From Eledone cirrhosa (lineage: Eukaryota), in contig OZ024742.1 of assembly GCA_964016885.1 (NCBI GenBank), positions 362,142,001-362,206,000 on the forward strand: DNA of 64,000 bases, read 5' to 3'. The notes beneath the pieces are model-generated. The model saw only the letters and a list, made by a program, of their open reading frames with translations. It did not search any database and was not told where the DNA came from. Below, in pieces: positions 5,960 to 61,310 of the stretch. The position numbers were made by a program, and so were the translations under genes. The stretch's first letter is position 1. Each line of letters begins with the position of its first letter.

Positions 5960-8900
5960 CCCTCCCAGGGATGAAAAACCTGTTTTTAAAAAATTTGTGG
6001 CATAAACAATTTCAATCGTCTGACAGAAATGTTAAACGAGGCTAACGAAAATAGTGGTGGGAGGACAGCGGTAAGAGTTGTAAGCTCGCACGCTTTAGTC
6101 CTCCCCTTCCTTCCCAACTAACGTCATAGAGAAGGAAAGAAAAAATAAAAGAAAAACAGACGAATCTGCGGAGAAAAATGACGAAAACACAAATCTGGAC
6201 ATTGATTCCAACAACGAAAAAAAAAAAAATTTGAAAAGTTGCATGACACTATTAATACCACAAACAAAGACACGACAAACACAAAAATAACATTTGAAAA
6301 CAACATCATAACAGAAAGCAAAGCAGACGACAAAGTCAACACCAATAATATTTCGTTTGCACAAACAACAAAGAAATCTTTGACATATATACCTGAAAAT
6401 ATTTCAGATGTGGCACAAAGAATTACAGACGCCAAACAATACATAACTGAAGGGGAAAATGGTATTTTATCTGTAAAAATGCCTCAAGAACTCACCAAAG
6501 ACATTGAAAGTCGGACGGTCGTTTTCCGCACCATCAACAACATTTCTAAAAAACCTCAACAGCCAACACAAACAGAAATCAAAGCAGTACTTACAGAAGT
6601 ACTTAATGAAACCACTTTCATAAGAAAAGACAGACTGTATGGAAGCCTAGCGATTATTATGAAGAACGAATCGGCGGCAAAAAAATGTGCTTTGTCACCG
6701 ATTCGTTCGACAAATTTTACCTTTTATCCATCTTATATGGGTAAAAGAACTCAGCGCATATGGCTGGATGCAATGATGCCAGATGTGGACTACTGCTGGC
6801 TCATAACTGGCTTCATCGATCCAGCGAATGACAACGTGATTTCCATTGGGAAAACCACAGGCAATGCGTTCAGTGGAACAGGTATAGAACTTGTAGTGCA
6901 AATGAAGCCTGAACGCATCGCCCAAATACCCGACAGAATCCTATTAGAGGGCCACGGGTATATAAACATTAGCGTAGGGGGGAGAAGGCCGTCCTGTCAT
7001 ATGTGTGCAGGCAGAGGGCACCTGAAGGCGGCTTGTCCCCAACTCAACAAAAAGAAAACCCTGCTACCAACACCAGCTCCAGCACCACCACAACAGCTAA
7101 ACAAACGACAAACCTCAGTCCCACCCAACCCGTCCCTCAGTAAAACTACACCACCACCACAACACAAACAGTCACAACACATTACCCAAAAACAAAATAC
7201 AGTCCCACCCAACCCCTCACTCAATAAAACAACACAACCACCGCAGCCACAACACACAACACTGTCTAACATAGTGACATCCATCTCCCCCACAAAGAAA
7301 ACCAACACGGAAACATTACCAGCAAACATACCTCTTCCCTCCAACACTGAAGATAACCCAACGAATTCGGAGGAAGAAACGGAGTCCTTCAGACAGATTA
7401 AAAGGAAAAAAAGAAAACATGTGCAAAACACACAAGGCCAAACAACCCCTACCCAAATGTCATCACAATCCAACAAAACACAAAACACCCCTCCAGCAAC
7501 AAACAAAACCAAACCTGCCCCTCCCCTCTTCGAAACACTCACACCATCCGAAAAAAAGACATTACACTATACTTACATCAGCAGAAACAATAATAAATTA
7601 AATGAACTCATAAACAATAATCCTTCGGTACAAACCGAAGGTGTAAACTTTGTTTCTTCAGAAAACTATGTGTTAAGAGTAGGATGTTTGAATGCACGTG
7701 GCCTGGGCTCAACTTGGAAGCAAGCAAAGCTTCTAAATGACCTCAGGTCACGTGGTATAAATGTAATGGTTATCTGTGAGACTCGGATCAGCGTCGTGCG
7801 GCAGCTGGCCCCTACCTTCGATGACTTTGAGGTGCATGCATCTCTCTGTCAACCTGGAGGTGGGGGTGGGGTTGTCGTACTGCTGGAAAAACACCTGGGT
7901 CTCGCCGTACAGGTTGTTCACTCAGACCAGGAGGGTCGTTTGTTGGTGCTAGACGTTGGCAGTAGTGAAGGTGCGGCCTTGAGACTGGTCGCCGTCTACT
8001 CCCCTTTCGGAGCTGAACGGCCCGACTTCTTCCAGCGTTTGGAGACTTTTCTGGGAACGTCGCGTTCCCTGCTTCTAGCGGGGGATTGGAATGACATCCT
8101 AGATGCACGTTGGGACTATGCAGGAGCATGTCCTAATAGAGGGGGGTGTAACAGCCTCAAGGGGTTACTCGACCGTTTTAACTTGGTCGATAGATATCGA
8201 CTAGATTTTCCAACTGTGCCAACCTGGAATTGAACGAACCACAGTGGTTAATCTAGATCGTACTTAGATAGATTCTTAGTTAGAAGTAAGGATAGGGACA
8301 TATTAAGCTGTACAGAAATGCTCACGCTTGGCTATACGGATCACAAATTAGTGACCTGCGTAGTCAATCTCGAGAAAACACATAAACAGGGTCCCGGTTA
8401 CTGGAAACTTAATTTGTCTTTACCGGCAAAAGAGACTTACAGAAACCGGATTAGCAGATTAGTTAAGGAGAGGTTGACGGGTGCAATCGTCAACAACCGA
8501 TGGTGGGCTTCTCTCAAAAGAGAGATTAGAACAGAATCAATAAGTTATAGCAAGATGTTAGCTGCCGATAGGAATAGAAACGAGAAAGAATTAAGAGGTA
8601 AATTAGAAGAGGCAATCAAGAGCGAAGAAGTGGCCAGAGAGCTAGCATCGAGGACGGCCTTGAACCAGTTTTTCGATGCAAAGCACGAAGGCTGCGTCAT
8701 TCGAAGTAAAATACGTGCTCTAGGTAATGAGGGGGCCAAAGTCGTTGGCTGGGCTCGCTTGACAGAAGCTAAGAGTGGAAATCGATCCACCATCCGGTCT
8801 TTGCAAGACAGGGATGGACGGGTGATCCGGGAGCCTAAGCAGATGTGCGAGGCCTTTCAAAGGCACTTTGCCCGATTATTCGGGGGAGGCGAGGGTCCGG

Positions 8901-11316
8901 ACGGGGACGGGGATTTCGGTCCATACCTCGACGGCCTGCCGCGTCTCTCGAGCGAAAAGGCAGAGTCCTGCGAGGGACCACTCTCGGCTGATGAGATCGG
9001 GGATGCGCTGAGCCAATGCAGCAGACGCAAATCTCCAGGTCTCGATGGTATACCTTACGAACTTTATTTAGCAATGCCGGTCTTCTCCGAAATCCTCGAA
9101 GCGGTCTACTGCAATTGGCAGCAGAACGGGAGAATTCCTTGTTCTGTAGCCAAGGGCGTAGTCTCGCTGGTGAGGAAGGACGAGAACAAGGGGGATAGTG
9201 TAAATAATTTTCGGCCCATAACCCTGCTAAACACAGAGTTAAAGATTTTGGCCAAGGTGTTAGCAAAGAGGTTGGCGTTTGTCGTGGGTGGCCTGGTGGG
9301 AGATGCGCAGACATGTGCTATCCCATCCAGGTCCATTCACGATAACCTCCACCTCATGCGATACATCATAGAGAGGGTTGGCAACAAACCCGGCTTCGGT
9401 GGGGCCCTGATCAACTTGGATCAGTCTAAAGCCTTCGATAGGGTCGACCATGGTTACCTGGATGCGGTGCTAGCGGCGGCTGGGTTCGGTTCTGTTTTCA
9501 GAGGCTGGATCACTGCCTTACATAGCAACCACATCTGTTCTAGGATCAAGGTGAATGGCTACCTTTCGAAGCCGTTCGAAATCACACGATCCATTCGACA
9601 GGGGTGCCCTCTCTCCTCCCTTCTGTACGTATTTACTCTCGAGCCTTTACTGAGGAAGTTGGAGTTGTTGCAGGGTATCCCCCTGGAACCAGGATTGAGC
9701 AAAGCGGTGTCGGCCTACGCCGATGACGTAACAGTAATGGTATCGACCGACTCGGAGATCGAGGCGATCGGTACCTTACTGGAGGATTACGAAAGGTTGT
9801 CAGGAGCGAAACTGAACCGGGAAAAATCCATCGGGCTGCAACTCGGAACGTGGAGAGGCAGACCGATGCCTCCCAACGTTGTCGTCGGACACTGGACGGA
9901 GGGCCCGGTGAAGTTGCTTGGGGTATGGTTTGGATCGGACCTCCAGGTGGAAAAGAACTGGGACGAGGTTACGAACAAGGTGTTCGCACTAACCCAGAAA
10001 TGGGCCAAGTGTAAGCTGTCCCTAAAAGGTCGGGCGGAGGTGGCGAACATTTACATAGCGTCCGTCACTTACTACCGCCTGACTGTCGTGCCTTGCCCTA
10101 AGAAAACACTCACCACCATGGAACGCATGCTCTTCCAATTTCTTTGGAAGAAGCGCCCTCCTATGGTGAGAAGATCCATCTGCTGCCAACAACCTTCGAA
10201 AGGAGAGCTGGGGATGCCGTGGTTGATGATGCGTAGGCACGCATTAAAGCTACGGCACCTACAGGTATTCCTCACTGGTCAACCGGTGTGGGCTCCGTTC
10301 GTGAAACGAGCCTTTCCGAGACTCGTCTCGCTCACCGAGTTACAGTCCTGGGTCAAGCAAAGATCCGGAAAACTGGGAGACTGGCACACTGAGTGTGCTC
10401 AGGCGCTCAGGGCTCTCTGGCAAGCGGGCCAGACCATCGGTGGAGAATCCACCTCATCATTCTATAGAGGGCTGGTGGTTAGCAGGGGCGATGACACCCT
10501 TGGAGAGTCGCTGGACATGGAAGAGGACGAACTGGCCAGCCTGTTCGGTAGGACTTTCGGCCCGGGACCAATGGACAACTTCCAGAAGTCACTAGCCTGG
10601 CAGTGCTACGGGGGGGGGGGGTTACCCGTTCGAGAGAGGCTCTACAGACACGGGCGCCCGGGCAGGGATCCCTTGAAAAAGATTTGCCCTAGATTCGTGC
10701 GTCACGAAGAAACCGTTGCGCACGCATTGGTGCAATGTCTGGGCGTGGCTGATCTGTGGGGCTACGCCGAACGACTGCTGTCGCGGGCGGCGCCGATTCG
10801 ATTGACCGCCGAGTCCGTGATGACAATCAAGCCGCCTCCCCTCTTCACAAAGGAAGCAAAGGCGGTTTTTCTGTGCGTAATAGCCATGTTGAAAGAGGTT
10901 GTTTGGTGGACACGATTGAAAGGTCTGAGGTCAGGCAACTTCCTCTCTGGCCATAGTCTGGTCTACTTCTTCCGATATCACTTCGGAAGAAGGATAAGAA
11001 TGGAGAGAGAGGTGCTTGGCCACAGGCAGTTTTATGAAAGGTGGGTGATAGTGGCGAGAATGGCTCGTGTAAATGGGCCTTCTCTGTATACCATCCTGTA
11101 GGTAAAGAAGTGAAGGAGAGGGGAGCACCTTCTCCATGTGCTCCCCGGGCAAAGGATTGCACACTTTTTCGGGTGTGTGTGCAACCCCCATCACGTCCCC
11201 TCCCTTTTGAGGTTGTTTTCGATTATTTTCATTTTCTACCCTTTTTACTCGATTTTATGTAAACTCCCCCTTTGTATTTGTCCCTTCTTTTAATGCCTTT
11301 ATGGTAAATAAAGAAA
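5960..11316 (+). mobile_element. Near full-length Tx1/L1-clade LINE (5' boundary approximate)
   Basis: ORF1-like region with CCHC knuckle, APE endonuclease, RT, 3' UTR ending AATAAAGAAA. Confidence 0.9.
6239..11101 (+). pseudogene. ORF1 (gag-like, CHMCAGRGHLKAAC) fused in frame to APE endonuclease and reverse transcriptase; two nonsense codons (8231, 8249)
   Basis: Motifs LNARGL, ICETR, AGDWN, SRSYLDR, TDHK (APE); FRPITLLN, LDQSKAFDRVDH, RQGCPLS, AYADD (RT); ORFs 6239-8233 and 8318-11101 share a frame. Confidence 0.9.
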
Positions 11317-16938: not shown

Positions 16939-17009
<71 letters not shown>

Positions 17010-17031
17010 GTGTAATAAACAATACAATATA

Positions 17032-17109
17032 ATTACCTCATTACCAGAGGTTTCCCGAATAAGACGAATACGAAAAAAACGTCCTCATTCGTTCGTCGGA
17101 CAAGGTAAT
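17032..17109 (-). ncRNA. Variant hammerhead (family H; CCGACGA core)
   Basis: ATTACCTTGT-CCGACGA-ACGAATGAGGACG..CGTCTTATTCGG-GAAA-CCTCTGG-TA-ATGAGGTAAT; 10-bp stem I; copy at 21599-21676 has TAAA in place of GAAA. Confidence 0.7.
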
Positions 17110-17729
17110 ATAAAACATAGTGAAATATTTGGAAAGTCTCATCAAGAAATGCAAAAAATATATAAATAAAATAAGCAAGAGATATATTAAAAAATATAGA
17201 AAAATATACAAAAAATATAAGGAAATATAGTTAGTATGTATATATGTATGTATATACACTCACAAATGTACATATGTGTGTATGTACAAATGCATGTGTA
17301 TGGTGAAAATGTGTGCGTAAGTACATATATGAGGGCAAGTATATTTGTGTATATGTGACCACAAATACGGGTATAATATGAGTTGAAAGAGAAGATGATG
17401 ATATAGTTGACACGCATCTAGATACAGGTATTAAATACACATACGAGTATGAAAGCACGCGTATAAACACACACATACGCGCGGTCATTTAGTGAAAAGA
17501 AGTGTCATTCTCGATATATGTATAAAAATGAAACAATATATGAGAATGAAAAAAAATTTTTAAATGAAAGAGAAAGTAATCAATCAACACTAGAGAAAAG
17601 AAAACAAACATAGGGACGCACGTACATACACATATATCTATAAATAACATATATCCATAAAAATATTTATACACACAAATACGTACAGACAAAAGCGCAT
17701 GTATGCGTACATACATACACACGAGGCAC

Positions 17730-17821
<92 letters not shown>

Positions 17822-18120
17822 CCCCATGTATATCTAATCACACGTACGTACGCGAATATAATATACACACACACACATACACACCCATACATACGCATAC
17901 ACACATACACACATACACACACATTCACGTACATTCACCCGCTTACGCACGCACGTAAAAATAAGAATGTAAAAAACAGATGTAAAAACATAGATATAAA
18001 AACACACATACACACACATATATATACACGCACACATACAGAGGCGCTCGTATACATATACAGAACGTATACACACATAAAAACACTCAGACATATAGAT
18101 ACAGAGTATAAAGCAGTCTT

Positions 18121-19870
18121 ATGAATAAAGTTAATAATAATTTACATAACCATCTCTTAATAGATAACATCACCTCTAAATACCAAATAGCTAATATAAA
18201 CACGTATCATAATATAAAGAAGGAAGCTAAAGAATTAGCTAGTTCTTTAAAAATAGATAATAGGACAGACAAACTTGCTAAACGTAATGAATATATCACC
18301 CTTAAAGATCACAAACCTGACTTTATTAATCGTCCTAGTTGTAGATTAATCAACCCTGCTAAGACTGATATCGGTCTTGTCAGCAAAATTTTTTTAAATA
18401 ATATGAACACACAGATTAGAAGTAAGTCTAAATTACTCCAATGGATAAATAGCTCTTCCGTAGTACATTGGTTTAATAAAATTAAAGATAAAAATAGTTC
18501 TAGATTCACCCAATTTGACATTGTAGATTTCTACCCGTCTCTCACTCAGACTCTTTTAGCGAAAGCCTTAAATTTCGCTAGAAAGTTTACCAATATCTCT
18601 GATATTGAAGAGAATGTCATCTTGCATGCTAGAAACACTCTACTCTTTACTGATAATGACACTTGGGTAAAAATATCTAACCCAGAGAGCCCATTCGATG
18701 TCTCAATGGGCTCTTTTGACAGTGCTGATGTTTGTGATTTAGTCGGCCTATTCCTCCTACACACACTGAAAGAAAAATTCCCTAACCATATTTTTGGGCT
18801 TTATCGCGACGATGGTCTAATACTTTCCCATACCACCATAGGCCATAACTTAGATAGATTAAGGAAAGACTTAATAAAAACCTTTGCTAGTTTTAATCTT
18901 AAAATTACTATTGACACTAACCTTTCCAATGTTATCTTTCTAGATATAAACCTAGATTTGCCTACTGCTTCTTATAAACCATACCATAAACCCAATGAAA
19001 ATTTAAAATACATAAATAAAGGCTCTTGCCATCCTCCTATAGTTTTTAAAAACCTTATCCCTAATATTAGTCGTAGGATCTCCACCCTCTCTTCCTCAGA
19101 AGCTATTTTCAATAAGGCATCCCCCTACTATAATAAAGCCCTTCAAAATAGCGGTTTAGGGAAACCGATTAAGTACATACCCAACAATACTAACTCTGTT
19201 AAACATAATAATAGGAAAAGAAAAATAATCTGGTTCACACACCCCTACTCTCTAGCAGTTAAACTAATGTAGGCAAAAAATTCCTAGAGCTCTTAGATAA
19301 ACATTTCCCTAGAACACATAGATACTATAAGACCTTCAATAGAAACTATTTCAAAATTAGCTACTCCTGCGGTCTCCCTATTAAATCTTATATCATCAAT
19401 AAGAATTCACCTAGAGAACATCAAAATTGCTCCTGTAGAGTCAAAAGTGAATGCCCATGACAAGGTAAATGCAACACCAAAGCCATTGTATATGCGGCTA
19501 AAGTGACAACCATTAGCAACAACCAACCAGCCACCAGTGAGCGATATGTGGGTTTGACACAAGACAAATTCAAAACGCGTTATTACTCACATGTCGCATC
19601 TTTCCGACATCCAGAAAAAAGATTCACAACAGCTCTGGCTAGCAGAATATGGGATTTGAAAGACCAAGGTATCCAATATAAATTGGATTGGTCAATCTTG
19701 AACCAATCTAAAGAATATGAAAGAGGACAAGAAGATGCACACTCTGCATAAGTGAAAAATATTAGATTTTACAAAACCTTAAATCACCAAAGACCTGCCT
19801 AAATACAAAAACGGAAATTTTCACCAGTTGCCCACACATGAAATCACACTTGCTTTCCAGCTCATATAAA
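18121..19870 (+). pseudogene. PLE reverse transcriptase + GIY-YIG endonuclease (frameshifted, 5'-truncated)
   Basis: CRLINP, FDIVDFYPS, SMGS, YRDDG, FLDI (RT); CSCR..CP, IVYAAKV..YVGLT, FKTRYYSH, CPH (EN); frameshift ~19262, TGA at 19458. Confidence 0.92.
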
Positions 19871-20616
19871 CTTAATTCACTTTCAGATACTTATCCTTCA
19901 TAATCTCTTATTCTTCACTTTCCTTAAATTATTCTCTTTACAGATTTCTTTTTCTAATTTACTTTCATTTTTAACTTTATTTTTAATTTTATTTTTTTAC
20001 TTCACATCCACCAGTAACCCCCCCCCCCTACTCTTCGATTCACTTACCTAATAACTTCACATTCCACATGTTACTCCCCCATTTTCTTTCACTACCTGAT
20101 TTCCTTGTCACTTGCGTTTTCCACTCCAGATATATTCTGTTGTTTCGCAGCAGTTTTTATATTAGTACTCATTTATTCATAAGGCTGCTTTATACTCTGT
20201 ATCTATATGTCTCAGTGTTTTTATGTGTCTATACGTTCTGTATATGTATACGAGCGCCTCTGTATGTGTGCGTGCGTGCGTGTATATATATATATATGTG
20301 TGTATGTGTGTTTTTATATCTATGTTTTTACATCTGTTTTTTACATTCTTATTCTTACGTGCGTGCGTAAGCGGGTGAATGTACGTGAATGTGTGTGTAT
20401 GTGTGTATGTGTGTATGTGTGTATGTGTGTATGCGTATGTATGGGTGTGTATGTGTGTGTGTGTATATTATAGTCGCGTACGTACGTGTGATTAGATATA
20501 CATGGGGATATATATATATATATATATGTAGGAGGTGAGTTTTATTGTAGTACAATAAAGCAATGCAGATATCGGATAAGAAGCACTCTACAGTTTGTGG
20601 GACTGGAGTATGCATA

Positions 20617-20954
20617 ATATAAGATCAAAAGATGGTTAAAGGAGTTCCATATATTTTATTATGCGCATTTCAAAAACAAACATCATCAAGCAATAATATT
20701 TGTGTTTTCATCAGATAAAACAGGAGAACATGATATGAAGGCTAAAAAAACACTTGTTGATAGTGCAGTTTTAAATCAACATATATGATATGTTGATTTA
20801 AAACTGCACTATCAACAAGTGTTTTTTAGCCTTCATATCATGTTCTCCTGTTTTATCTGATGAAAACACAAATATTATTGCTTGATGATGTTTGTTTTTG
20901 AAATGCGCATAATAAAATATATGGAACTCCTTTAACCATCTTTTGATCTTATAT
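20617..20954. mobile_element. Palindromic insert (~168-bp arms) carrying a hammerhead on each strand (family I)
   Basis: Arms 20617-20784 and 20788-20954; HHR TTTTAT-CTGATGA-AAACACAAAT..TTTGTTTTT-GAAA-TGCGCA-TA-ATAAAA at 20851-20917 (+) and 20654-20720 (-); absent from the left inverted repeat of the host PLE. Confidence 0.85.
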
Positions 20955-21724
20955 ATATATATATATATATATACACGTGCCTTGTGTCTATGGATGTACG
21001 CATACATGCGCTTTTGTCTGTACGTATTTGTGTGTATAAATATTTTTATGGATATATGTTATTTATAGATATATGTGTATGTACGTGCGTCCCTATGTGT
21101 GTTTTATTTTCTCTAGTGTTGATTGATTACTTTCTCTTTCATTTAAAATTTTTTTTCATTCTCATGTATTGTTTCATTTTTATACATATATCGAGAATGA
21201 CACTTCTTTTCACTAAGTGACCGCGCGTATGTGTGTGTTTATACGCGTGCTTTCATACTCGTATGTTTATTTAATACCTGTATCTAGATGCGTGTCAACT
21301 ATATCATCATCTTCTCTTTCAACTCATATTATATCCGTATTTGTGGTCACATTTACACAAATATACTTGCCCTCATATATGTACTTACGCACACATTTTC
21401 ACCATACACATGCATTTGTACATACACACATATGTACATTTGTGAGTGTATATACATACATATATACATACCTAACTATATTTCCCTATATTTTTTGTAT
21501 ATTTTTCTATATTTTTTAATATATCTCTTACATTACTTTTATTTATATATTTTTTGCATTTCTTGATGAGACTTTCCAAATATTTCACTATGTTTTATAT
21601 TACCTTGTCCGACGAACGAATGAGGACGTCTTTTTGGTATTCGTCTTATTCGCTAAACCTCTGGTAATGAGGTAATTATATTGTATTGTTTAATATACAT
21701 TAAATTTTGCTCTGGTACTTACAT

Positions 21725-23272
<1,548 letters not shown>

Positions 23273-23396
23273 GAATATAGACATAGAATATTCGAAAATA
23301 TTCTGTATGTTTATAATAAACATTTTGAAGACCTAATCGCTATAGAATAGAATACGTCACGTATTACAATTCGATTCTCGATAAAAGCAAGGGAAG

Positions 23397-23437
23397 TAAT
23401 CTACGCGTTTCATTCTCGTTAGAAATCATCAGGACTA
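23397..23437 (-). ncRNA. Type I minimal hammerhead (family J), first of 7 minus-strand copies at 310-bp spacing
   Basis: TAGTC-CTGATGA-TTTCTAACGAGAAT-GAAA-CGCG-TA-GATTA. Confidence 0.9.
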
Positions 23438-25639
23438 CATATCCAGTGCTTTTATCGAGAATGACACAGCTAGAGACTTATAGAATACTTAGCTGTGTAC
23501 AGGAACTGGTTTGAAAGAGCGGTTGCCGGTCCGGCAGAAATTAGAAATTGGAATAAATGCTCTGAAATAGCGATATATATGTGAATATAGACATAGAATA
23601 TTCGAAAATATTCTGTATGTTTATAATAAACATTTTGAAGACCTAATCGCTATAGAATAGAATACGTCACGTATTACAATTAGATTCTCGATAAAAGCAA
23701 GGGAAGTAATCTACGCGTTTCATTCTCGTTAGAAATCATCAGGACTACATATCCAGTGCTTTTATCGAGAATGACACAGCTAGAGACTTATAGAATACTT
23801 AGCTGTGTACAGGAACTGGTTTGAAAGAGCGGTTGCCGGTCCGGCAGAAATTAGAAATTGGAATAAATGCTCTGAAATAGCGATATATATGTGAATATAG
23901 ACATAGAATATTCGAAAATATTCTGTATGTTTATAATAAACATTTTGAAGACCTAATCGCTATAGAATAGAATACGTCACGTATTACAATTAGATTCTCG
24001 ATAAAAGCAAGGGAAGTAATCTACGCGTTTCATTCTCGTTAGAAATCATCAGGACTACATATCCAGTGCTTTTATCGAGAATGACACAGCTAGAGACTTA
24101 TAGAATACTTAGCTGTGTACAGGAACTGGTTTGAAAGAGCGGTTGCCGGTCCGGCAGAAATTAGAAATTGGAATAAATGCTCTGAAATAGCGATATATAT
24201 GTGAATATAGACATAGAATATTCGAAAATATTCTGTATGTTTATAATAAACATTTTGAAGACCTAATCGCTATAGAATAGAATACGTCACGTATTACAAT
24301 TAGATTCTCGATAAAAGCAAGGGAAGTAATCTACGCGTTTCATTCTCGTTAGAAATCATCAGGACTACATATCCAGTGCTTTTATCGAGAATGACACAGC
24401 TAGAGACTTATAGAATACTTAGCTGTGTACAGGAACTGGTTTGAAAGAGCGGTTGCCGGTCCGGCAGAAATTAGAAATTGGAATAAATGCTCTGAAATAG
24501 CGATATATATGTGAATATAGACATAGAATATTCGAAAATATTCTGTATGTTTATAATAAACATTTTGAAGACCTAATCGCTATAGAATAGAATACGTCAC
24601 GTATTACAATTAGATTCTCGATAAAAGCAAGGGAAGTAATCTACGCGTTTCATTCTCGTTAGAAATCATCAGGACTACATATCCAGTGCTTTTATCGAGA
24701 ATGACACAGCTAGAGACTTATAGAATACTTAGCTGTGTACAGGAACTGGTTTGAAAGAGCGGTTGCCGGTCCGGCAGAAATTAGAAATTGGAATAAATGC
24801 TCTGAAATAGCGATATATATGTGAATATAGACATAGAATATTCGAAAATATTCTGTATGTTTATAATAAACATTTTGAAGACCTAATCGCTATAGAATAG
24901 AATACGTCACGTATTACAATTAGATTCTCGATAAAAGCAAGGGAAGTAATCTACGCGTTTCATTCTCGTTAGAAATCATCAGGACTACATATCCAGTGCT
25001 TTTATCGAGAATGACACAGCTAGAGACTTATAGAATACTTAGCTGTGTACAGGAACTGGTTTGAAAGAGCGGTTGCCGGTCCGGCAGAAATTAGAAATTG
25101 GAATAAATGCTCTGAAATAGCGATATATATGTGAATATAGACATAGAATATTCGAAAATATTCTGTATGTTTATAATAAACATTTTGAAGACCTAATCGC
25201 TATAGAATAGAATACGTCACGTATTACAATTAGATTCTCGATAAAAGCAAGGGAAGTAATCTACGCGTTTCATTCTCGTTAGAAATCATCAGGACTACAT
25301 ATCCAGTGCTTTTATCGAGAATGACACAGCTAGAGACTTATAGAATACTTAGAATGAAACGCGTAGATTACTTCCCTTGCTTTTATCGAGAATCTAATTG
25401 TAATACGTGACGTATTCTATTCTATAGCGATTAGGTCTTCAAAATGTTTATTATAAACATACAGAATATTTTCGAATATTCTATGTCTATATTCACATAT
25501 ATATCGCTATTTCAGAGCATTTATTCCAATTTCTAATTTCTGCCGGACCGGCAACCGCTCTTTCAAACCAGTTCCTGTACACAGCTAAGTATTCTATAAG
25601 TCTCTAGCTGTGTCATTCTCGATAAAAGCACTGGATATG

Positions 25640-25680
25640 TAGTCCTGATGATTTCTAACGAGAATGAAACGCGTAGATTA
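25640..25680 (+). ncRNA. Type I minimal hammerhead (family J), first of 6 complete plus-strand copies; predicted cleavage after GUA 25675
   Basis: TAGTC-CTGATGA-TTTCTAACGAGAAT-GAAA-CGCG-TA-GATTA; palindromic stem III ACGCGT. Confidence 0.9.
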
Positions 25681-27384
25681 CTTCCCTTGCTTTTATCGAG
25701 AATCTAATTGTAATACGTGACGTATTCTATTCTATAGCGATTAGGTCTTCAAAATGTTTATTATAAACATACAGAATATTTTCGAATATTCTATGTCTAT
25801 ATTCACATATATATCGCTATTTCAGAGCATTTATTCCAATTTCTAATTTCTGCCGGACCGGCAACCGCTCTTTCAAACCAGTTCCTGTACACAGCTAAGT
25901 ATTCTATAAGTCTCTAGCTGTGTCATTCTCGATAAAAGCACTGGATATGTAGTCCTGATGATTTCTAACGAGAATGAAACGCGTAGATTACTTCCCTTGC
26001 TTTTATCGAGAATCTAATTGTAATACGTGACGTATTCTATTCTATAGCGATTAGGTCTTCAAAATGTTTATTATAAACATACAGAATATTTTCGAATATT
26101 CTATGTCTATATTCACATATATATCGCTATTTCAGAGCATTTATTCCAATTTCTAATTTCTGCCGGACCGGCAACCGCTCTTTCAAACCAGTTCCTGTAC
26201 ACAGCTAAGTATTCTATAAGTCTCTAGCTGTGTCATTCTCGATAAAAGCACTGGATATGTAGTCCTGATGATTTCTAACGAGAATGAAACGCGTAGATTA
26301 CTTCCCTTGCTTTTATCGAGAATCTAATTGTAATACGTGACGTATTCTATTCTATAGCGATTAGGTCTTCAAAATGTTTATTATAAACATACAGAATATT
26401 TTCGAATATTCTATGTCTATATTCACATATATATCGCTATTTCAGAGCATTTATTCCAATTTCTAATTTCTGCCGGACCGGCAACCGCTCTTTCAAACCA
26501 GTTCCTGTACACAGCTAAGTATTCTATAAGTCTCTAGCTGTGTCATTCTCGATAAAAGCACTGGATATGTAGTCCTGATGATTTCTAACGAGAATGAAAC
26601 GCGTAGATTACTTCCCTTGCTTTTATCGAGAATCTAATTGTAATACGTGACGTATTCTATTCTATAGCGATTAGGTCTTCAAAATGTTTATTATAAACAT
26701 ACAGAATATTTTCGAATATTCTATGTCTATATTCACATATATATCGCTATTTCAGAGCATTTATTCCAATTTCTAATTTCTGCCGGACCGGCAACCGCTC
26801 TTTCAAACCAGTTCCTGTACACAGCTAAGTATTCTATAAGTCTCTAGCTGTGTCATTCTCGATAAAAGCACTGGATATGTAGTCCTGATGATTTCTAACG
26901 AGAATGAAACGCGTAGATTACTTCCCTTGCTTTTATCGAGAATCTAATTGTAATACGTGACGTATTCTATTCTATAGCGATTAGGTCTTCAAAATGTTTA
27001 TTATAAACATACAGAATATTTTCGAATATTCTATGTCTATATTCACATATATATCGCTATTTCAGAGCATTTATTCCAATTTCTAATTTCTGCCGGACCG
27101 GCAACCGCTCTTTCAAACCAGTTCCTGTACACAGCTAAGTATTCTATAAGTCTCTAGCTGTGTCATTCTCGATAAAAGCACTGGATATGTAGTCCTGATG
27201 ATTTCTAACGAGAATGAAACGCGTAGATTACTTCCCTTGCTTTTATCGAGAATCTAATTGTAATACGTGACGTATTCTATTCTATAGCGATTAGGTCTTC
27301 AAAATGTTTATTATAAACATACAGAATATTTTCGAATATTCTATGTCTATATTCACATATATATCGCTATTTCAGAGCATTTAT

Positions 27385-31906
<4,522 letters not shown>

Positions 31907-37441: not shown

Positions 37442-37444
<3 letters not shown>

Positions 37445-39710
37445 GGAAAGTTATATTTAAATTGTTGGGTTAACAACGAGTAAATATTTATAACTGATAT
37501 AAAAGCACTCAACAAGTATTTGGAGTATATTTATGATATTAAATAAATGGAAACTATATTTATAAAACCATATTTATTTCATTATATATATTTCAGGGAT
37601 ATCATATTAACAATATGTTATGCCTTCTTCAGACAAAATACAATATAAACAGTCTTATAAATAAATAGATACGACATACCTTTCAATCGACTTGCATTTG
37701 GGAAGTTGATTTGGCAGTAAAAATATTATGGACAGTTGTAAAAAGAAAGAGAGAAAGAAAGAAAGAAAAACGAAGAAAAAGAAGAAATGCATGTGACTAA
37801 ATAGAGAGATATAGAAAGATAGATAAAGAGAAGAACTTCATGCAAAGAAACAGAGAGAGAGGAAAAAAGAAAGAGATAGACAGAGATAGATAGAGAAACT
37901 AGGTAGTTGAGCATCAGTTGATACATTTATTTATTTATTTATTTATTTATTCACTCAGCCCCAGCATTAATGCAAAGAAAGATGCATGTAGCCAAGAGAG
38001 AAAATAGCCGTCACATAGAGAGAAAAAAGAGAAAATGAAAAATGAAAAATAACCAGACACAAGCGAGGCAGAGTTTAAAAAACGCCATGTTTCATCATTT
38101 AGAAAATATTAGTTCGTATAAAACAGGCACCACAATGTAAACACCAGCACTCATGAATGAGACATGTATCCACAATGTGTGAAAAGCAATGATCCCATGT
38201 CTAGTTTTTAAAAATTCATATGTTTATATCATAACTATAAACAAACTCCTATTTCACACGAAAACATTCTCACTGTGCTATAAAAACTCAAGTATACATA
38301 TATGTGTGTATATATACACATATATATAGAGTCTACATCAACCATAACAATACTATTCTTGTCCTTACTCTACATGATTATCGATCAAGCAGAAACAGAG
38401 AACAGATTTCAACATACCAACAAAAACATCAGAAACAAGAAAATAAATAAACAGAAAACTAAAACATTTAATATTAAAAATAAAAATATCACAAAATATT
38501 AAAAAATAATAAAAATAAAACACAGTATGCCACGCAAATCGACCACAACGATCAGCCTTTCAAAGTTAATTGACAACACATTGCCAAGTTCATCATAAGC
38601 ATCAGAGTCAAAACAGACAAAACAAAAATTATTTACCAAATCCTGTCTAGCAGAAATCACCCCAAAAGTTTAGGATACCCATTTGGTCCACATATGTTCC
38701 CACATTCAATATAGAAGTTTATCTAGTGTAAAACTTAATTCGATACACTTGGAGCATCAGCCTTTAGGGCAGTTTAACCATTCATGAAGAATGTTTTAAT
38801 AAAAAGAAGAAATCGAAAGATTTATCGGCTAGTTTCATAAACAACTACAAATCAAATCAAACACACCACATTCCAAATCTAAATTTATATTTAAACGTTG
38901 AGCTCAATCCATGTCTGCAGCAACTGAATAAATCTGTCCGTAGATTAAGGGGATTTTTAGATTTTAGTATAAAGAATATCTCCTCCGCACAGAGGTCACA
39001 TGTCTCAGAGGATGAATTAAAAGGAATCCCTCTTGAAACTATATTCCAAGTCGTCGAATATCTAACGCTATCATGCCTAAGTTGCCAGAGTACGCCTGAT
39101 AGTGCTGTTGAAGATTTTCTGGATGGATCTGTGAAAGAACCCCTGTGGTTGCTAAGCGAAGTTTAAATTCCGTCGATGTGGAACCAACGTAGTTAAAAGA
39201 ATTAACGTCCGTTCCAACACCACAGTTGACGGCTATTTTCTCTCTTGGCTACATGCATCTTTCTTTGCATTAATGCTGGGGCTGAGTGAATAAATAAATA
39301 AATAAATAAATGTATCAACTGATGCTCAACTACCTAGTTTCTCTATCTATCTCTGTCTATCTCTTTCTTTTTTCCTCTCTCTATATCTCTCTCTCTGTTT
39401 CTTTGCATGAAGTTCTTCTCTTTATCTATCTTTCTATATCTCTCTATTTAGTCACATGCATTTCTTCTTTTTCTTCGTTTTTCTTTCTTTCTTTCTCTCT
39501 TTCTTTTTACAACTGTCCATAATATTTTTACTGCCAAATCAACTTCCCAAATGCAAGTCGATTGAAAGGTATGTCGTATCTATTTATTTATAAGACTGTT
39601 TATATTGTATTTTGTCTGAAGAAGGCATAACATATTGTTAATATGATATCCCTGAAATATATATAATGAAATAAATATGGTTTTATAAATATAGTTTCCA
39701 TTTATTTAAT

Positions 39711-39716
<6 letters not shown>
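37442..39716 (-). mobile_element. 5'-truncated Penelope-like element (GIY-YIG remnant ~38880-39210) with ~480-bp inverted copy of its 3' region (37532-38013 / 39227-39716)
   Basis: Manual translation NYVGSTSTEFKLR..STALSGVLW..CDLCAEE..LNLRTDLFSCCRH; HHR in both inverted repeats. Confidence 0.83.
39608..39673 (+). ncRNA. Type I hammerhead ribozyme (family M); inverted copy at 37575-37640 (-)
   Basis: TATTTTGT-CTGAAGA-AGG..CCT-GAAA-TATATA-TA-ATGAAATA. Confidence 0.82.
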
Positions 39717-49546: not shown

Positions 49547-51640
49547 ATGGCTACCAAAAAGAAATTTCATACGTCACTCCCACTCATTCCGTCTTCTTCT
49601 TCCTCAATCATCACTACAGCAGAGAGAAGATTGTCTCTCTCCCTCCCTTCTTTAAATGTGTCTCTCTCCCTCCCTTCTCTTTCGCAAGCGACGAAAGAAA
49701 AGAAAAGTCTCGTGCAAAGCGTGCAAGGTTTTTCCACGACGACGACGACAGCGACGAAAGAGGTGTGCGGGAAATACGAAAACCCAGTTCATTCGTCTGA
49801 CGTCAGGAATAATAGCAGTAGCAGCCGTAATAACAACAGCAACAGTGACAATGAAAACAACAGTAGCAGCCGCAACAGCATCACCAGCAGCATAAACAAC
49901 AACAGCATTAGCAGCAGCAACACCAACAACAACCACAGCAACAGCGGCGGAGGCAGTAGTCGTAGTACCTGCAGCAACAAAAGTACCAGCAGCTCTGACG
50001 ACAACAACAACAGCAGAGAAAAACCAATCTCATTTGCAGGTATTGCGAAAAACTTGGAAACAATCCTCATAACAAATGAGGAATTAGAGGAAGCGAAGAA
50101 GATGGTGACAAAGAACGGACACCGAGCAATCTGCAAGGCAGCGAAAAATTTTTTCGAAACCCAAGAGCACTGTACGGTCACGTACCGTACAGTAAGTACA
50201 AAATCCCGTAGGGTGGAAAGAGCCACAGAGGCCCAAATACAAAAAGCCTTGGGGTCCGTGTGGCAGAGGAAAACGCACATCACCCGAGGCAAAAAATACG
50301 CCACCGTAGACGTACTTTTTGCCACACCCCAGGAGGCAAAGGCCCAATCAGTAGTGACCCTAAGGAGCGAGGAAATGGTGTTGGTGCCCTCCTACTGCGG
50401 GCAAAAAATTGTGAGGGTCAAACTGACCCACGTCCCCCCCGGAATGACCCCTTCTTGGCTGGCCGCGTCTGTCCTCGTCGGAATCGAGGACAAAACAACT
50501 GTACTGCAAGTACAGAAAAAAGTAAGAGAAGATTGGGTCGGCTCCTCCATTGAGATGCTAATCCAAACCAACCAGGAGTGCATCGAAGCTATCCCGGATG
50601 TGATAGACTTCGATAACGGCACTCAACTGCCCATAAGTGTTGAGGGCAAACGCCCGAAATGCTTTCGCTGTGGATCGAAGACTCACCTCAGGGCCTTCTG
50701 CAACGAGAAGACCCTGAGAAAGGAGAAAACCCCCCTCCTTCCGAATCCGGCTCCACGGCTACCAGCAACAGGACAAGCGGCAACCAGGAACGATAGGTCC
50801 GTGGCACCCATACCCACTCCACGGAAATCAAAGACAGCAGCAGCAGTGGAAATATTAACAACAACAACAGCAATACCAAATGCAGCTGCAACAGAGACTC
50901 CAGTGCAAACATCACCAACAACAACAAGTGAAAGAGTGGAGCTGGTACCCCTCCCCGACCTTACAGAATCAGACATGGAGTGTGAGGTGGGAGAGGGATG
51001 GCAAAAGGTCGTAAGAAGGCACAAACGCAGAAGCAGCGCATCGTCGCCTTTGAAAAGGGAGGAAAGAAATGAGAAAAGGGTAAAGTCTACTGCAAAGAGA
51101 CCCACAGCAGCAACACCACCAACACCATCACCACCCACACCAGCACCACCATCACCACCGGCGACAACCCCACCGCCAACAACACCTTCAACACCACCAC
51201 CACAAGCACCAACATCGCAAACACAACAACAAAACACACACACCCAGCAACAACGACAAGAAAATAGCAGAACCACACCCCACCCCCAGAAAAACAAATG
51301 CACGGCAATAAATACACACAACAAGAAACTAATGACTTACATAATTGAACACACAGACATTTCACAACAGGACTACATAATACCAGCACCAATCAAAACG
51401 CCAACTAACATAAGACTGCTAAAAATAGCACAGAAACAATACACAAATATTAAAACGAAATTCCCCAACGCAGTTGGTGATTTCAGGGACCTAGGAGGAA
51501 CCATCAATCGAAGAGTATACTCAGACATTCTCTTAGAAGAGCCGACGACCAGCCGAAGGGACGATTCAACGGTCCCTTCACCAGACGATCAAGTGAAAAG
51601 GGATGTAAAAACCATCCCTCCTCTACCAAAAGTACGGTAA
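49547..51640 (+). CDS. LINE ORF1 protein (gag-like, CCHC knuckle CFRCGSKTHLRAFC)
   Basis: Open frame from first ATG (MATKKK); zinc knuckle; low-complexity linkers. Confidence 0.88.
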   Translation: MATKKKFHTSLPLIPSSSSSIITTAERRLSLSLPSLNVSLSLPSLSQATKEKKSLVQSVQGFSTTTTTATKEVCGKYENPVHSSDVRNNSSSSRNNNSNSDNENNSSSRNSITSSINNNSISSSNTNNNHSNSGGGSSRSTCSNKSTSSSDDNNNSREKPISFAGIAKNLETILITNEELEEAKKMVTKNGHRAICKAAKNFFETQEHCTVTYRTVSTKSRRVERATEAQIQKALGSVWQRKTHITRGKKYATVDVLFATPQEAKAQSVVTLRSEEMVLVPSYCGQKIVRVKLTHVPPGMTPSWLAASVLVGIEDKTTVLQVQKKVREDWVGSSIEMLIQTNQECIEAIPDVIDFDNGTQLPISVEGKRPKCFRCGSKTHLRAFCNEKTLRKEKTPLLPNPAPRLPATGQAATRNDRSVAPIPTPRKSKTAAAVEILTTTTAIPNAAATETPVQTSPTTTSERVELVPLPDLTESDMECEVGEGWQKVVRRHKRRSSASSPLKREERNEKRVKSTAKRPTAATPPTPSPPTPAPPSPPATTPPPTTPSTPPPQAPTSQTQQQNTHTQQQRQENSRTTPHPQKNKCTAINTHNKKLMTYIIEHTDISQQDYIIPAPIKTPTNIRLLKIAQKQYTNIKTKFPNAVGDFRDLGGTINRRVYSDILLEEPTTSRRDDSTVPSPDDQVKRDVKTIPPLPKVR

Positions 51641-51675
51641 GTGGTCTTTCCCATCTTTTCCACTCTATTTTAAAC

Positions 51676-54600
51676 ATGACCTCACTCAGAATAGGCAGCA
51701 TAAATGCGCGTGGCTTGGGGTCGTCATGGAAGCAGGGTCACCTGCTCAACGACCTCAGGTCACTAAACATAGATGTAGTGGCCATCAGCGAGACCAGAAT
51801 CTCCGAAGCACGGGCCTTCGCACCGATCTTCGGCGGCTACGATGTGTACGCATCTCCCAGCCGTCCTGGATCGGGTGGAGGAGTTGCTGTGCTTTTTCGG
51901 AGAGGTTTGGATCTCGCCATACGGGCCATCTTCCTGGACCCAGAGGGTAAGCTGGTGGTGCTGGACGTGACCAGCGGAGACGGGCAAGCTTTCAGGCTAG
52001 TGGCCGTCTATGCCCCGACAGGAGCAGGGCGGCCTGATTTCTTCCGGCGTCTGGAGAACTTTCTTGGAACGTCCCGCTCTTTAGTGTTAGTGGGCGACTG
52101 GAACGGGATCTTAGATGCACGCTGGGACTGTGTGGGATTAGCGGATAGGGGTGGAGGGTGCAAGAGCCTCACCAACCTGCTCAGGCGTTTTGAACTGTCT
52201 GACAGGTACCGATTGGATTTCCCGAATGTGCCAATGTGGACTTGGACAAACCGCATAGGGTCATCCAGATCATATCTAGATAGAGTATTTTGTAGGGAAA
52301 TAGATAGGTCTAGCATAGGCTGTCCACAATTCAAGATAGTCAGCTACACGGACCACAAATTCGTGATCTGTGTGCTTGACTTAGATAGGCTTCATAGACG
52401 AGGACCCGGCTACTGGAAGCTAAACGCGTCCTTACCAGCGCGCAAGGCCTACAGAGACCGGATTAGCGAACTAGTTAAGCGGGCGTTGACGGGGGCCATC
52501 GTCAACAACAAGTGGTGGTTTGCTCTGAAAAGAGCGATTAGAATAGAATCGATTAGGTTTAGTAAGGCTTTAGCAATAGAGAAAAATAGAGCAGAGGGAG
52601 AACTAGTTAAAAAATTAGACGAGGCGCTTAGCAAAGGCATTGCGACCGACGTGCTTGCGGCGAAATTGGCCCTTGACCAATTCTTCAATGCAAAGCACGA
52701 AGGCTGCGTTGTCAGAGCTAGGGTGCGTGCTCTCAGACACGAGGGGACGAAAGCCGTTCAATGGGCCCGAGTGGCGGAGGCGCGTCGTGGCAACAAAGCC
52801 ACGATCCGGTCTTTGGTGGACCACGACGGGCGCATGCTACTCGATCCCGGGAAAATGTGTGAAGCTTTTCAGCGACACTTCGCTCAGCTGTTCGGGGGCA
52901 GCGGGGGGCCGGGTAGAGGGATGGACTTTAGTGTCTACCTCGACGGACTGCCGCGGCTCTCGGCCACTGAGGCGAAGTGTTGCGAAAAGCCGATAACAGC
53001 CGCTGAAGTAAGGGAGGCAATGACTGGCTGCACAAGGGGTAAATCGCCTGGTTTGGATGGTCTGCCCTATGAACTTTACGTACAGATGCCAGACTTGTTC
53101 GGAGGCCTCTTGGCGGACGTCTACTGCAACTGGCAACAGAACGGGAGAATTCCCAGTTCTGTGAGCCGAGGAGCGGTGGCACTGCTGAGAAAGGATCCGA
53201 ACAAGGGGGATAACATAGACAATTTCCGGCCCATAACTCTGCTAAACACAGAGTTTAAGATTTTGGCCAAGGTGCTAGCAAAGAGGTTGGCGCTTGTCGT
53301 TGGTGGTCTGGTGGGAGAGGCGCAGACATGCGCCATTCCCGACAGATCCATCCACGACAACCTCCACCTCATGCGATACATCGTAGAGAGGGTAGCTAGG
53401 GAACCTGGCACGGGTGGGTCCTTGATCAATTTAGATCAGTCGAAAGCTTTCGATAGGGTCGACCATCGTTACCTAGCGGCAGTCCTGAGGGCGGCTGGCT
53501 TTGGGCCCGTCTTCAGAGGCTGGATCGCTGCCATGCACAGCGACATCTGCTCTGTGGTGAGAGTGAACGGTCACCTGTCGGAACCGTTCAACATCATGCG
53601 CTCGGTCCGCCAAGGATGTCCCCTCTCGTCCCTCTTGTACGTATTGACTCTCGAGCCATTACTGCACAAACTGGAGACGTTGAGGGGAGTCCCGCGCGAA
53701 CTAGGATGCGGAAGATCAGTGTCAGCATATGCGGACGATGTCACCGTAGTGGTGTCGAGCGCCAAACACATCGAGGCGATCGGCACTACACTAAGAGAAT
53801 ACGAAGCGGTGACAGGAGCAATGATCAACCAGGAAAAGTCAGTGGGCCTGCAGCTCGGCACCTGGAGAGGCAGGTCCATGCCGTCCAACAGCGTCGTCGG
53901 ACGCTGGACGGACGGACCGGTTAAATTGCTAGGGGTCTGGTTCGGTCCGGACCTCCAGACGGACAAAAACAGGGACGAGGTGACGAGCAGGGTGGCTTCT
54001 CTCACCCAGAAATGGGCGGAGAGGAAGCTATCCCTGAAAGGTCGAGCGGAGGTGGCTAACGCGTACATCGCGTCCGTCATCTGCTACCGTCTGACCGTCG
54101 TACCTTGTCCTAAGCCTCGCCTGACTGCGCTGGAGCGTTTGCTCTTTCGCTTTTTGTGGAAGGGACGCGCTCCGATGGTCAGGCGGTCCATCTGTTGTCA
54201 ACACCCGCTACGTGGAGGGCTGGGCATGCCGTGGCTGATGATGCGCAGGCACGCGCTCAGGCTACGACATCTCCACCTCTTCCTCGACGGTGATCAGGTG
54301 TGGTCGCCGTTTGCTAGGCGCGTGTTTCCCCAGCTCGTTTCCTTGACGGAGCTGCAGTCCTGGGTCAAGCGAAGACCGAGAGGGAGCGCCTGGAGACTGG
54401 AATGTCTTCAGGCGCTCACAGCCCTCGACCAATCGGGCAATGTAATCGGTGGAAACTCCACCTCGGCGTTCTATAGAGGATTAGTGGAGGGGAAGAGCGA
54501 TGACGTACTTGGGGAAACTCTAGGCGTCGACGAAAATCAACTAGCCAATCTCTTCGGAAGAACTTTCGGGCCAGGGCCTATGGACAACTTCCAGAAATCT

Positions 54601-55095
54601 CTGGCCTGGCAGTGCTACCGAGGAGCCTTGCCAGTTCGGGATAAACTCTACAGGCATGGAGGTGCCGTCAGCCGGGCATGTCCGAGATGCGCGCAGGGCG
54701 ACGAAACCGTCCTGCACGCACTCGTCCAGTGTCCGAAAATTGCTGACTTGTGGGTTTATGTCGAACACCTGCTGTCGCGTTTAGGACGGATCCGGCTATC
54801 ATCTGAGTCCATCGTGAGGATTGCCCCGCCCTCCTCCTTTAGCCGGGAAGGGCAGGCAGTTTTTATCTGCCTGGTGGCCATGGTGAAAGAGATAGTATGG
54901 TGGACACGTTTGAAAGGGCTGAAGACGAGCACTTACCTCTTCGGTGATGCTCTGATTGACTTTTTCAAATTTCATTTGAAAAGGAAAATCAGAGTAGAGA
55001 GGGAAGTGCTCTCTTCCCAGCATTTTGTTGAAAGATGGGTGAGAGAAGCAAGAATGGCCCGAGTGAATGGGCCTACGCTGAGTATATATCTGTAA
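51676..55095 (+). CDS. LINE ORF2 (APE endonuclease, reverse transcriptase, C-terminal CCHC), 1139 aa
   Basis: INARGL, ISETR, VGDWN, SYLDR, TDHK; QGCPLS, YADD; CPRC..HALVQC. Confidence 0.96.
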   Translation: MTSLRIGSINARGLGSSWKQGHLLNDLRSLNIDVVAISETRISEARAFAPIFGGYDVYASPSRPGSGGGVAVLFRRGLDLAIRAIFLDPEGKLVVLDVTSGDGQAFRLVAVYAPTGAGRPDFFRRLENFLGTSRSLVLVGDWNGILDARWDCVGLADRGGGCKSLTNLLRRFELSDRYRLDFPNVPMWTWTNRIGSSRSYLDRVFCREIDRSSIGCPQFKIVSYTDHKFVICVLDLDRLHRRGPGYWKLNASLPARKAYRDRISELVKRALTGAIVNNKWWFALKRAIRIESIRFSKALAIEKNRAEGELVKKLDEALSKGIATDVLAAKLALDQFFNAKHEGCVVRARVRALRHEGTKAVQWARVAEARRGNKATIRSLVDHDGRMLLDPGKMCEAFQRHFAQLFGGSGGPGRGMDFSVYLDGLPRLSATEAKCCEKPITAAEVREAMTGCTRGKSPGLDGLPYELYVQMPDLFGGLLADVYCNWQQNGRIPSSVSRGAVALLRKDPNKGDNIDNFRPITLLNTEFKILAKVLAKRLALVVGGLVGEAQTCAIPDRSIHDNLHLMRYIVERVAREPGTGGSLINLDQSKAFDRVDHRYLAAVLRAAGFGPVFRGWIAAMHSDICSVVRVNGHLSEPFNIMRSVRQGCPLSSLLYVLTLEPLLHKLETLRGVPRELGCGRSVSAYADDVTVVVSSAKHIEAIGTTLREYEAVTGAMINQEKSVGLQLGTWRGRSMPSNSVVGRWTDGPVKLLGVWFGPDLQTDKNRDEVTSRVASLTQKWAERKLSLKGRAEVANAYIASVICYRLTVVPCPKPRLTALERLLFRFLWKGRAPMVRRSICCQHPLRGGLGMPWLMMRRHALRLRHLHLFLDGDQVWSPFARRVFPQLVSLTELQSWVKRRPRGSAWRLECLQALTALDQSGNVIGGNSTSAFYRGLVEGKSDDVLGETLGVDENQLANLFGRTFGPGPMDNFQKSLAWQCYRGALPVRDKLYRHGGAVSRACPRCAQGDETVLHALVQCPKIADLWVYVEHLLSRLGRIRLSSESIVRIAPPSSFSREGQAVFICLVAMVKEIVWWTRLKGLKTSTYLFGDALIDFFKFHLKRKIRVEREVLSSQHFVERWVREARMARVNGPTLSIYL

Positions 55096-55354
55096 ATTAA
55101 AGGTGGAAAACTGGGAGAGGGCACTTGCCTTGGTGGTCAGGGTCATTGTGGCTTTTTACTGGGCTTTCACCACAAATGTCCCTCCGAAGTCTCCCCCCTA
55201 TTGGGGAATTTTTCATTGTTATTTTCATTGTTATTTTTGTTACATCCTCTGTTTTTGTTTTTTACACGCAGAAATGCCCATTTGTACCGTCCTGCATTGT
55301 CCTGCACTGTCCTTAATGTCTACTTTATGTAAACCCTTGTAGTTAATAAAGAAA

Positions 55355-55404
<50 letters not shown>

Positions 55405-61260: not shown

Positions 61261-61263
<3 letters not shown>
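55405..61263 (+). mobile_element. Full-length but disrupted Tx1/L1-clade LINE (ORF1 ~55785-57594, ORF2 57629-61020; frameshifts and stops)
   Basis: ORF2 fragments nearly identical to 51676-55095; ORF1 with CVVCGEGTHLRAFC; flanked by (TTA)n. Confidence 0.92.
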
Positions 61264-61294
<31 letters not shown>

Positions 61295-61310
61295 TTATTG
61301 TTATTGTTAT

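Follow-up and report, generated by a model that had tools for sequence, protein, structure and literature searches.

A head-to-head double array of a 310-nt unit was found in a 64,000-nt stretch of DNA (the window), and the best explanation overall, which is held with good confidence, is that the array is a retrozyme inserted in the manner of Penelope. The unit itself is very probably a non-LTR retrozyme, i.e., a retroelement of animal DNA that is non-autonomous and lacks coding capacity. The fold of the unit is known already as an expected property of animal retrozymes; what is of value is the insertion signature.

The monomer, taken from cleavage site to cleavage site (25676..25985, plus strand), comprises 310 nt with a GC content of 34.5%, and 12 exact genomic copies of it were counted in the array. 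Its longest ATG-initiated ORF encodes 30 aa, and a coding function of the monomer was rejected. The right arm (25351..27385, plus strand) contains 6.56 tandem units with 0 mismatches to a perfect tandem; it starts at monomer position 296 and stops at position 159-160 in (TA)n. The left arm (23273..25352, minus strand) contains 6.71 tandem units, starts at monomer position 220 and stops at position 129-130, also in (TA)n. It carries one substitution, at 23372, which is the only internal substitution in approximately 4.1 kb of array. At the head-to-head junction (25351..25352), the arms overlap by 2 nt, and monomer positions 220 and 296 are joined. The array ends directly in (TA)n with no LTR organisation, and no RT or GIY-YIG ORF was found in it.

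One type I hammerhead was found per unit (25949..25991, plus strand; consensus and core numbering according to the available part of PMC4209133). It consists of a 6-bp stem I (25949-25954/25986-25991), a core (25955-25961), a GAAA segment (25976-25979) and, following U.U at 10.1/11.1, a stem II of 4 bp; the core boxes match exactly. Cleavage is predicted at GUA, after 25985. In total, 13 complete hammerhead motifs are present in the array. The hammerhead descriptor matched the plus strand only (4 of 5000 shuffled monomers also matched), and a descriptor scan of the minus strand of the monomer detected no hammerhead core. No ribozyme family was reported by Rfam at gathering scores in the whole window. 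At E values up to 10, a search of low sensitivity, only chance matches were obtained in 25600-26100, with neither a hammerhead nor any other ribozyme family among them; this result was counted against the retrozyme reading.

Helix III of the hammerhead is palindromic (25979..25984, plus strand), so that two neighboring copies could form a double hammerhead by pairing their helices III. According to the accessible text of PMC4209133, hammerheads that cleave as dimers in tandem repeats are marked by a helix III that is short and palindromic. In a stretch with two ribozymes (25600-26030), the double-hammerhead fold was the unconstrained minimum (-110.7 kcal/mol versus -107.6 kcal/mol for local stems), and helix III was paired with a probability of 0.65. 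One of the two junctions of this fold is built from the monomer's own stem I and the 16-bp helix described below. The minimum-energy fold of a stretch with three ribozymes had local stems I and not the double hammerhead; therefore, the double hammerhead was only near-isoenergetic. In the predicted circle, stem I was formed (probability 0.86-1.0), and stem II was mostly unformed (0.15). The weakness of stem II in the array allele with U.U (pair probability 0.15-0.39) was counted against cleavage. An axolotl retrozyme with U.U at the base of stem II is reported to cleave well as a dimer (PMC7229834, in part), and eight of nine Xenopus dimers are reported to show no cleavage in vitro (10.64898/2026.07.22.740005, in part). 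Judged from sequence, the array copy appears reasonably probable to cleave in vivo.

The initial annotation had described the monomer as folding like a branched RNA of viroid type. All of the helices and near-palindromes that it named were found at the positions given. On the plus strand, a perfect 16-bp helix (5' arm 25688-25703, 3' arm 25925-25940) extends stem I, and a 9-bp helix (25889-25897/25915-25923), two 8-bp helices (25734-25741/25813-25820 and 25773-25780/25785-25792) and three near-palindromes with a 1-nt spacer (25712-25726, 25851-25863 and 25754-25770) are also present. The branched interior (25712..25923) is made up of the hairpins 25712-25726, 25851-25863 and 25889-25923 and a long arm, 25734-25820. 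The longest perfect inverted repeat in the monomer measured 16 nt, compared with a maximum of 11 nt in 300 shuffles. At least three palindromes with a 1-nt spacer, the number in the monomer, occurred in 1 of 2000 shuffles.

Comparison with shuffled controls, the check proposed in the annotation, favored the monomer in both its linear and circular forms. The linear fold had an energy of -72.5 kcal/mol (z -3.91; 1 of 100 shuffles was equally good), and the circular fold had an energy of -67.8 kcal/mol (z -4.31; matched by 0 of 300 shuffles). For the minus strand, the circular fold reached -77.9 kcal/mol (z -5.22; again 0 of 300). Since stability was symmetric between the strands, the z-score alone is no sign of selection at the RNA level. 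When the 16-bp clamp was left out, the monomer interior folded with a z-score of -2.37 (4 of 300 shuffles were as good). Pairing in the predicted circle amounted to 60%. Pair probabilities in the circle were approximately 1.0 over most pairs of the 16-bp and 9-bp helices, approximately 0.97 for AGAATATT, approximately 0.6 for ATAGCGAT and only approximately 0.4 for the ATGTTTAT hairpin. A fold of this kind is expected for the retrozyme family because published members are described as highly self-paired circles.

The modeled monomer agrees with the description of a branched, well-paired unit bounded by cleavage sites, in which the extended stem I would close the unit and place its ends near each other. 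The 16-bp helix had also been proposed to run across the cleavage site. It does extend stem I; it does not cross the site since it starts 12 nt past the 5' end and stops 45 nt before the 3' end. Internal loops separate it from stem I. The near-palindromes are predicted to fold as ordinary triloop hairpins, and the proposal that they could favor intermolecular pairing was not borne out: the homodimer gain was -12.5 kcal/mol, compared with -10.3 +/- 2.4 kcal/mol for shuffled sequences, 19 of 100 of which were as good. The palindrome relevant to dimer action is the 6-nt helix III, which was absent from the annotation. A sigma-70 scan, based on a model ill-suited to animal DNA, returned 4 sites versus 3.0 expected.

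The retrozyme family is defined by tandem copies, size, a GC content under 50%, the lack of LTR, PBS and PPT, and a long target site duplication (TSD), according to the available part of PMC7229834. The unit studied here has a size within the range of 150-450 bp and the low GC content given above, exists as tandem DNA, contains a type I hammerhead in every repeat, has no coding capacity and is predicted to form a self-paired circle with stem I. A Penelope-like element (PLE) is co-resident in the same animal DNA, the animal origin of the window being indicated by long TA, CA and CT microsatellites together with several LINE reverse transcriptases and a PLE-type RT. The TSD, for which more than 4 bp is given, was estimated at approximately 12 nt from two paralogous empty sites within a microsatellite.

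As an identity, "viroid-type" was not supported: the unit is a tandem repeat in animal DNA, and only one of its polarities carries a hammerhead. Viroid identity was rejected since no hammerhead core was found on the minus strand and a DNA form exists. Hammerhead viroids (Avsunviroidae) and viroid-like circles, as presented in the accessible parts of PMC11721086 and PMC7761336, have their size, non-coding nature, branched fold and hammerhead in common with the unit; the unit differs from them in its type I rather than type III hammerhead, single polarity, genomic DNA form and 34.5% GC. It is extremely improbable that the array is an endogenised viroid-like replicon of the Avsunviroidae type with symmetric rolling-circle replication. 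Such a replicon would agree with the size, the branched fold, the 60% pairing and the good folding of both strands, but not with a type I hammerhead on one polarity, a dimer-type helix III and genomic tandem DNA. Moreover, circles with a ribozyme on one polarity are expected to be retrozymes (PMC11721086, in part), and the viral and metagenome contigs that were scanned yielded no relative beyond the ribozyme core.

The ends of the array were compared with the insertion features of PLEs. Published hallmarks of these elements are head-to-head inversion, a one-sided tail of 30-40 nt and (TA)n targeting (PMC8557442), as well as a 31-bp tail and TSDs of 8-10 bp (PMC3846280), both sources being available in part. 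The array has inverted, 5'-truncated arms joined head to head, a (TA)n target and a one-sided tail of 30 nt. The 3' ends of its arms lie 129 and 159 nt beyond the last cleavage site and are 30 nt apart in the monomer. The left end adjoins the only AT run of the unit (positions 132-139) and can be placed at position 139 if one mismatch is allowed, which gives a tail of 21 nt instead of 30. The 30 nt that separate these 3' ends (25806..25835, plus strand; monomer positions 131-160) may correspond to a "tail" of the Penelope type, flanked by two start sites of reverse transcription, by analogy with the systems covered in the available parts of PMC11167929 and PMC8557442. Purified PLE protein is reported to nick and extend both strands, with internal starts at two RNA sites that bound the tail (PMC11167929, in part).

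Target remnants were found on both sides of the array: 20 nt of (TA)n on the left (23253..23272) and 15 nt of (TA)n on the right (27386..27400), the latter followed by a TTT interruption. Two microsatellite blocks (28200-29480 and 30080-31292) were used as paralogous empty sites. The distance from the last C to the TTT mark was 23 nt at both empty sites, compared with 20 + 15 nt around the array. This suggests a target duplication of approximately 12 nt, a value to be read as approximate because the paralogs are imperfect microsatellites that differ elsewhere. It appears likely that the insertion was of the Penelope type and that the array was trans-mobilised by a (TA)n-targeting PLE.

A perfect inverted repeat of 2014 nt with 100% identity could also arise when a simple tandem is folded back in a read or during assembly, and such structures are reported to trouble assemblers (PMC8557442, in part). 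It is nevertheless very unlikely that the inverted double array, with its head-to-head junction as read in the assembly, is an artefact of this kind. The arms stop at different monomer positions (130 and 160), and the flanks are not mirror images. The left block was aligned to the empty sites in direct orientation with a score of 928, compared with 393 when reversed, and an empty site is restored when the two flanks are put together. The center keeps a 74-nt asymmetric spacer, and the monomer itself is present in independent runs.

An element of the kind that could supply the enzyme for the array lies 1.6 kb from it and is not part of it. This broken Hydra-type PLE (17003..21705, plus strand) contains an RT (18121-19272), a CxCX5C linker, the remnant of a C-terminal GIY-YIG domain and inverted pLTRs with a hammerhead; the clade features used for the assignment were those of section 11 of PMC8557442, as far as that source was available. 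The pLTRs are 757 nt long and 96.8% identical, and the element is broken by a frameshift and stops. Its hammerhead has a CCGACGA core variant at 17099 (minus strand), with a degenerate copy near 21610. The one top relative of the RT that bore a species name was a sea cucumber protein. A 15-mer of the array (25920-25934), which overlaps the 3' arm of the 16-bp helix, is antisense to the pLTR sense strand of this element at 17502-17516 and 21189-21203; in this post hoc comparison, 31 of 5000 shuffles matched the element and 240 of 5000 matched the window. Apart from this 15-mer, no extended homology was found between the array and the pLTR of this one PLE, to which the comparison was limited. 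A small inverted element with two outward-facing hammerheads (20528-20954) is nested in the right pLTR region of the PLE, and a 136-nt near-perfect palindrome around a TA run (21725-21860) lies between the PLE and the microsatellite block.

Outside the array, 12 further hammerhead motifs were found in the window, compared with 0-1 in 100 shuffles. In three other hammerhead-bearing inverted pairs, the 3' ends face outward towards (TA)n at unequal distances, as in the array. Downstream of the array, which sits in a TA/CA block, there are three 612-nt elements (27599-28210, 29480-30091 and 31295-31906; 611/612 and 607/612 identical). Each is a long palindrome whose spacer holds a type I hammerhead with CTAG as helix III, and each has a terminal hairpin. 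They alternate with TA/CA blocks of 1.2-1.3 kb at periods of 1881 and 1815, forming a second hammerhead tandem. An inverted-repeat element at 37442-39715 has 500-nt arms of 96.6% identity and is bordered by (TA)n on both sides; it is extended on one side, and its two CTGAAGA hammerheads face outward. Solo type I hammerheads with a palindromic helix III are located at 1830, 2940 (minus strand), 5346 and 16272 (minus strand), and two of them lie 50-64 nt upstream of (TA)n. GC-rich LINE copies occupy 7691-11086, 51592-55404 and 57547-61311; the last two encode an endonuclease, an RT and zf-RVT and form a tandem pair with 94.6% identity.

The following route would account for the array. A multimeric transcript would be cleaved at every GUA, most probably by pairs of hammerheads joined through the palindromic helix III, with one junction of each pair contributed by the monomer's stem I and the 16-bp clamp. 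A host ligase of the RtcB type would then close the monomer, whose ends are kept near each other, into a circle with stem II mostly unformed; this kind of ligation is the circularisation route published for retrozymes (PMC7229834, in part). A (TA)n-targeting Penelope-like RT/endonuclease would nick both strands of the microsatellite approximately 12 nt apart, and two cDNAs would be primed at internal RNA sites 30 nt apart. Each cDNA would extend over approximately 6.6 units, copied from a circle or an uncleaved multimer, and the two would be joined by the 2-nt overlap.

The circle is given a slight preference as the template for the cDNAs. It would be the simplest source of approximately 6.6 identical units per arm; an uncleaved multimer would also serve. 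A route with no circle is possible, if doubtful: the array may have been copied from an uncleaved multimeric donor transcript, or a short insertion may have been expanded later by unequal crossover, in which case the monomer fold would act mainly as an RT-binding site. Unprocessed, uncleaved RNA is reported as the main substrate of a PLE in vitro (PMC11167929, in part), and therefore, a circle is not required. Local expansion has been proposed (10.64898/2026.07.22.740005, in part), and the U.U allele may cleave slowly. Against this, the two arms would need to have been expanded separately to nearly equal lengths (6.71 and 6.56 units) while staying identical, and related retrozymes are reported to accumulate as circles (PMC7229834, in part).

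Relatives of the monomer were found in sequencing runs. Of 24 listed runs, 20 contained 65-100% of the sampled monomer words; these runs bore 18 organism labels and belonged to 17 studies, one possibly being the source. No RNA run was listed among those with the words, which counts neither for nor against expression. Raw Hi-C reads of a further run, X23 (1938 million letters, approximately 1 in 100 of the run), gave 0 matching reads, a result that carries no weight. Contigs from three runs (X16, X18 and X20) each contained one homogeneous unit with approximately 99% identity and a joint leading back by 310, at depths of 3-18. All three have A at 25962, which gives an A-U Watson-Crick pair at 10.1, at the base of stem II, where the array has U.U. 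In loop 2, all three also have A at 25970. Changes private to one run were found at 25806 in X18 and at 25855 in X20 (depth 3), the latter breaking a hairpin pair. The C-to-T change at 25806 in X18 lengthens the AT run and yields the base that is also seen at the left insertion junction, 23271. None of the four variable sites in the three runs fell within the 16-bp helix, and no two-sided compensatory change was present among them, this amount of variation being too small to decide on covariation. The X20 contig begins and stops at the GANTC site of the unit and has a GATC chimeric junction at one end; it is therefore DNA, and the library was presumably of the Hi-C type.

These data may be read as the trace of an RNA circle, similar to a retrozyme, which spreads from one animal species to another and which resident PLEs now and then reverse-transcribe into genomes. 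A hammerhead circle would then pass nearly unchanged (approximately 99% identity under up to 18 organism labels) between unrelated hosts and be fixed in the genome by resident (TA)n-targeting PLEs through two-strand priming and rolling-circle reverse transcription, as an animal counterpart of a retroviroid with a very recent insertion. Both the movement between species and this extended form of it are considered improbable. The number of carrying runs and the three homogeneous contig sets speak for such movement, but since the organism labels are coded, the hosts may be close relatives, share a cobiont or food, or represent cross-contaminated libraries. Bleed from a library rich in repeats would likewise produce a single consensus unit at low depth. 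In two further runs of the X18 sample, next to none of the sampled words were present, which is no proof of absence, the X20 contig is DNA, and the minus strand has no ribozyme core. From a high-copy repeat, one would not expect single homogeneous units at depths of 3-18; low-copy carriers, a cobiont and library bleed fit equally well.

In a metagenome scan, the strict core pattern gave 0 loci, and the relaxed pattern gave 25 loci (L002-L026), all of which are hammerheads with the same palindromic helix III. None of the 25 showed likeness to the monomer beyond the core or a comparable tandem period. Many of them lie inside or beside inverted repeats of 250-650 nt, and they are probably PLE ends from animal DNA. 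No relative was found in a viral scan, in which the 1 locus obtained was a chance match in a coding repeat.

The array is relevant to the search for the mobiliser of animal retrozymes. In the available parts of 10.64898/2026.07.22.740005 and PMC7229834, PLEs are named only as likely mobilisers, on the basis of co-occurrence, shared ribozymes and pLTR trees. Here, a single very young insertion combines four Penelope-type marks, among them the suggested duplication of ~12 nt, on a multimeric non-coding array. Since the monomer offers two candidate sites for the start of RT, trans-mobilisation becomes directly testable with purified PLE protein. No description of an inverted retrozyme insertion of this kind was found in the literature searched, which covered few subscription papers. 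If the carriers are unrelated species, the data would also count as evidence that a ribozyme circle moves horizontally among animals.

Metazoan non-LTR retrozymes of coral, mussel and axolotl, as described in the available text of PMC7229834, likewise consist of tandem units with one type I hammerhead per unit and no ORF. Two axolotl ribozymes from that source share details with the unit studied here: HHR_Amex2 has U.U at the base of stem II, and HHR_Amex1 has a single-pair helix III with a palindromic tetraloop. Compared with those retrozymes, the 310-nt unit represents a new sequence family, known here from DNA alone. Its helix III is of the dimer type, whereas most of the invertebrate retrozymes described there cleave as monomers, and that part of the source mentions no head-to-head double array whose ends are offset by 30 nt. 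The repeats are called species-specific there, whereas the 310-nt unit was found with approximately 99% identity under several organism labels.

Vertebrate non-LTR retrozymes have been treated as PLE derivatives by Li, Clavereau and Pollet (10.64898/2026.07.22.740005, in part). By the definition of an active element given there, a minimum of two successive units whose hammerheads are complete, the array counts as active; its unit length of 310 nt is near the family averages, and PLEs are present in the same genome. The link to PLEs consists of co-occurrence and pLTR homology in that work, whereas in the array it consists of insertion-site signatures, pLTR homology to the neighboring PLE not having been found.

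With PLEs of the Hydra clade and others (PMC8557442, PMC3846280, PMC11167929 and PMC4209133, each available in part), the array shares the inverted 5'-truncated arm, the one-sided tail of approximately 30 nt, the (TA)n target and a candidate TSD near 10 nt. Its hammerheads, which lie upstream of the 3' ends, likewise have a palindromic helix III. Unlike these elements, it contains no RT or endonuclease and is built from a 310-nt unit that is multimeric in both arms.
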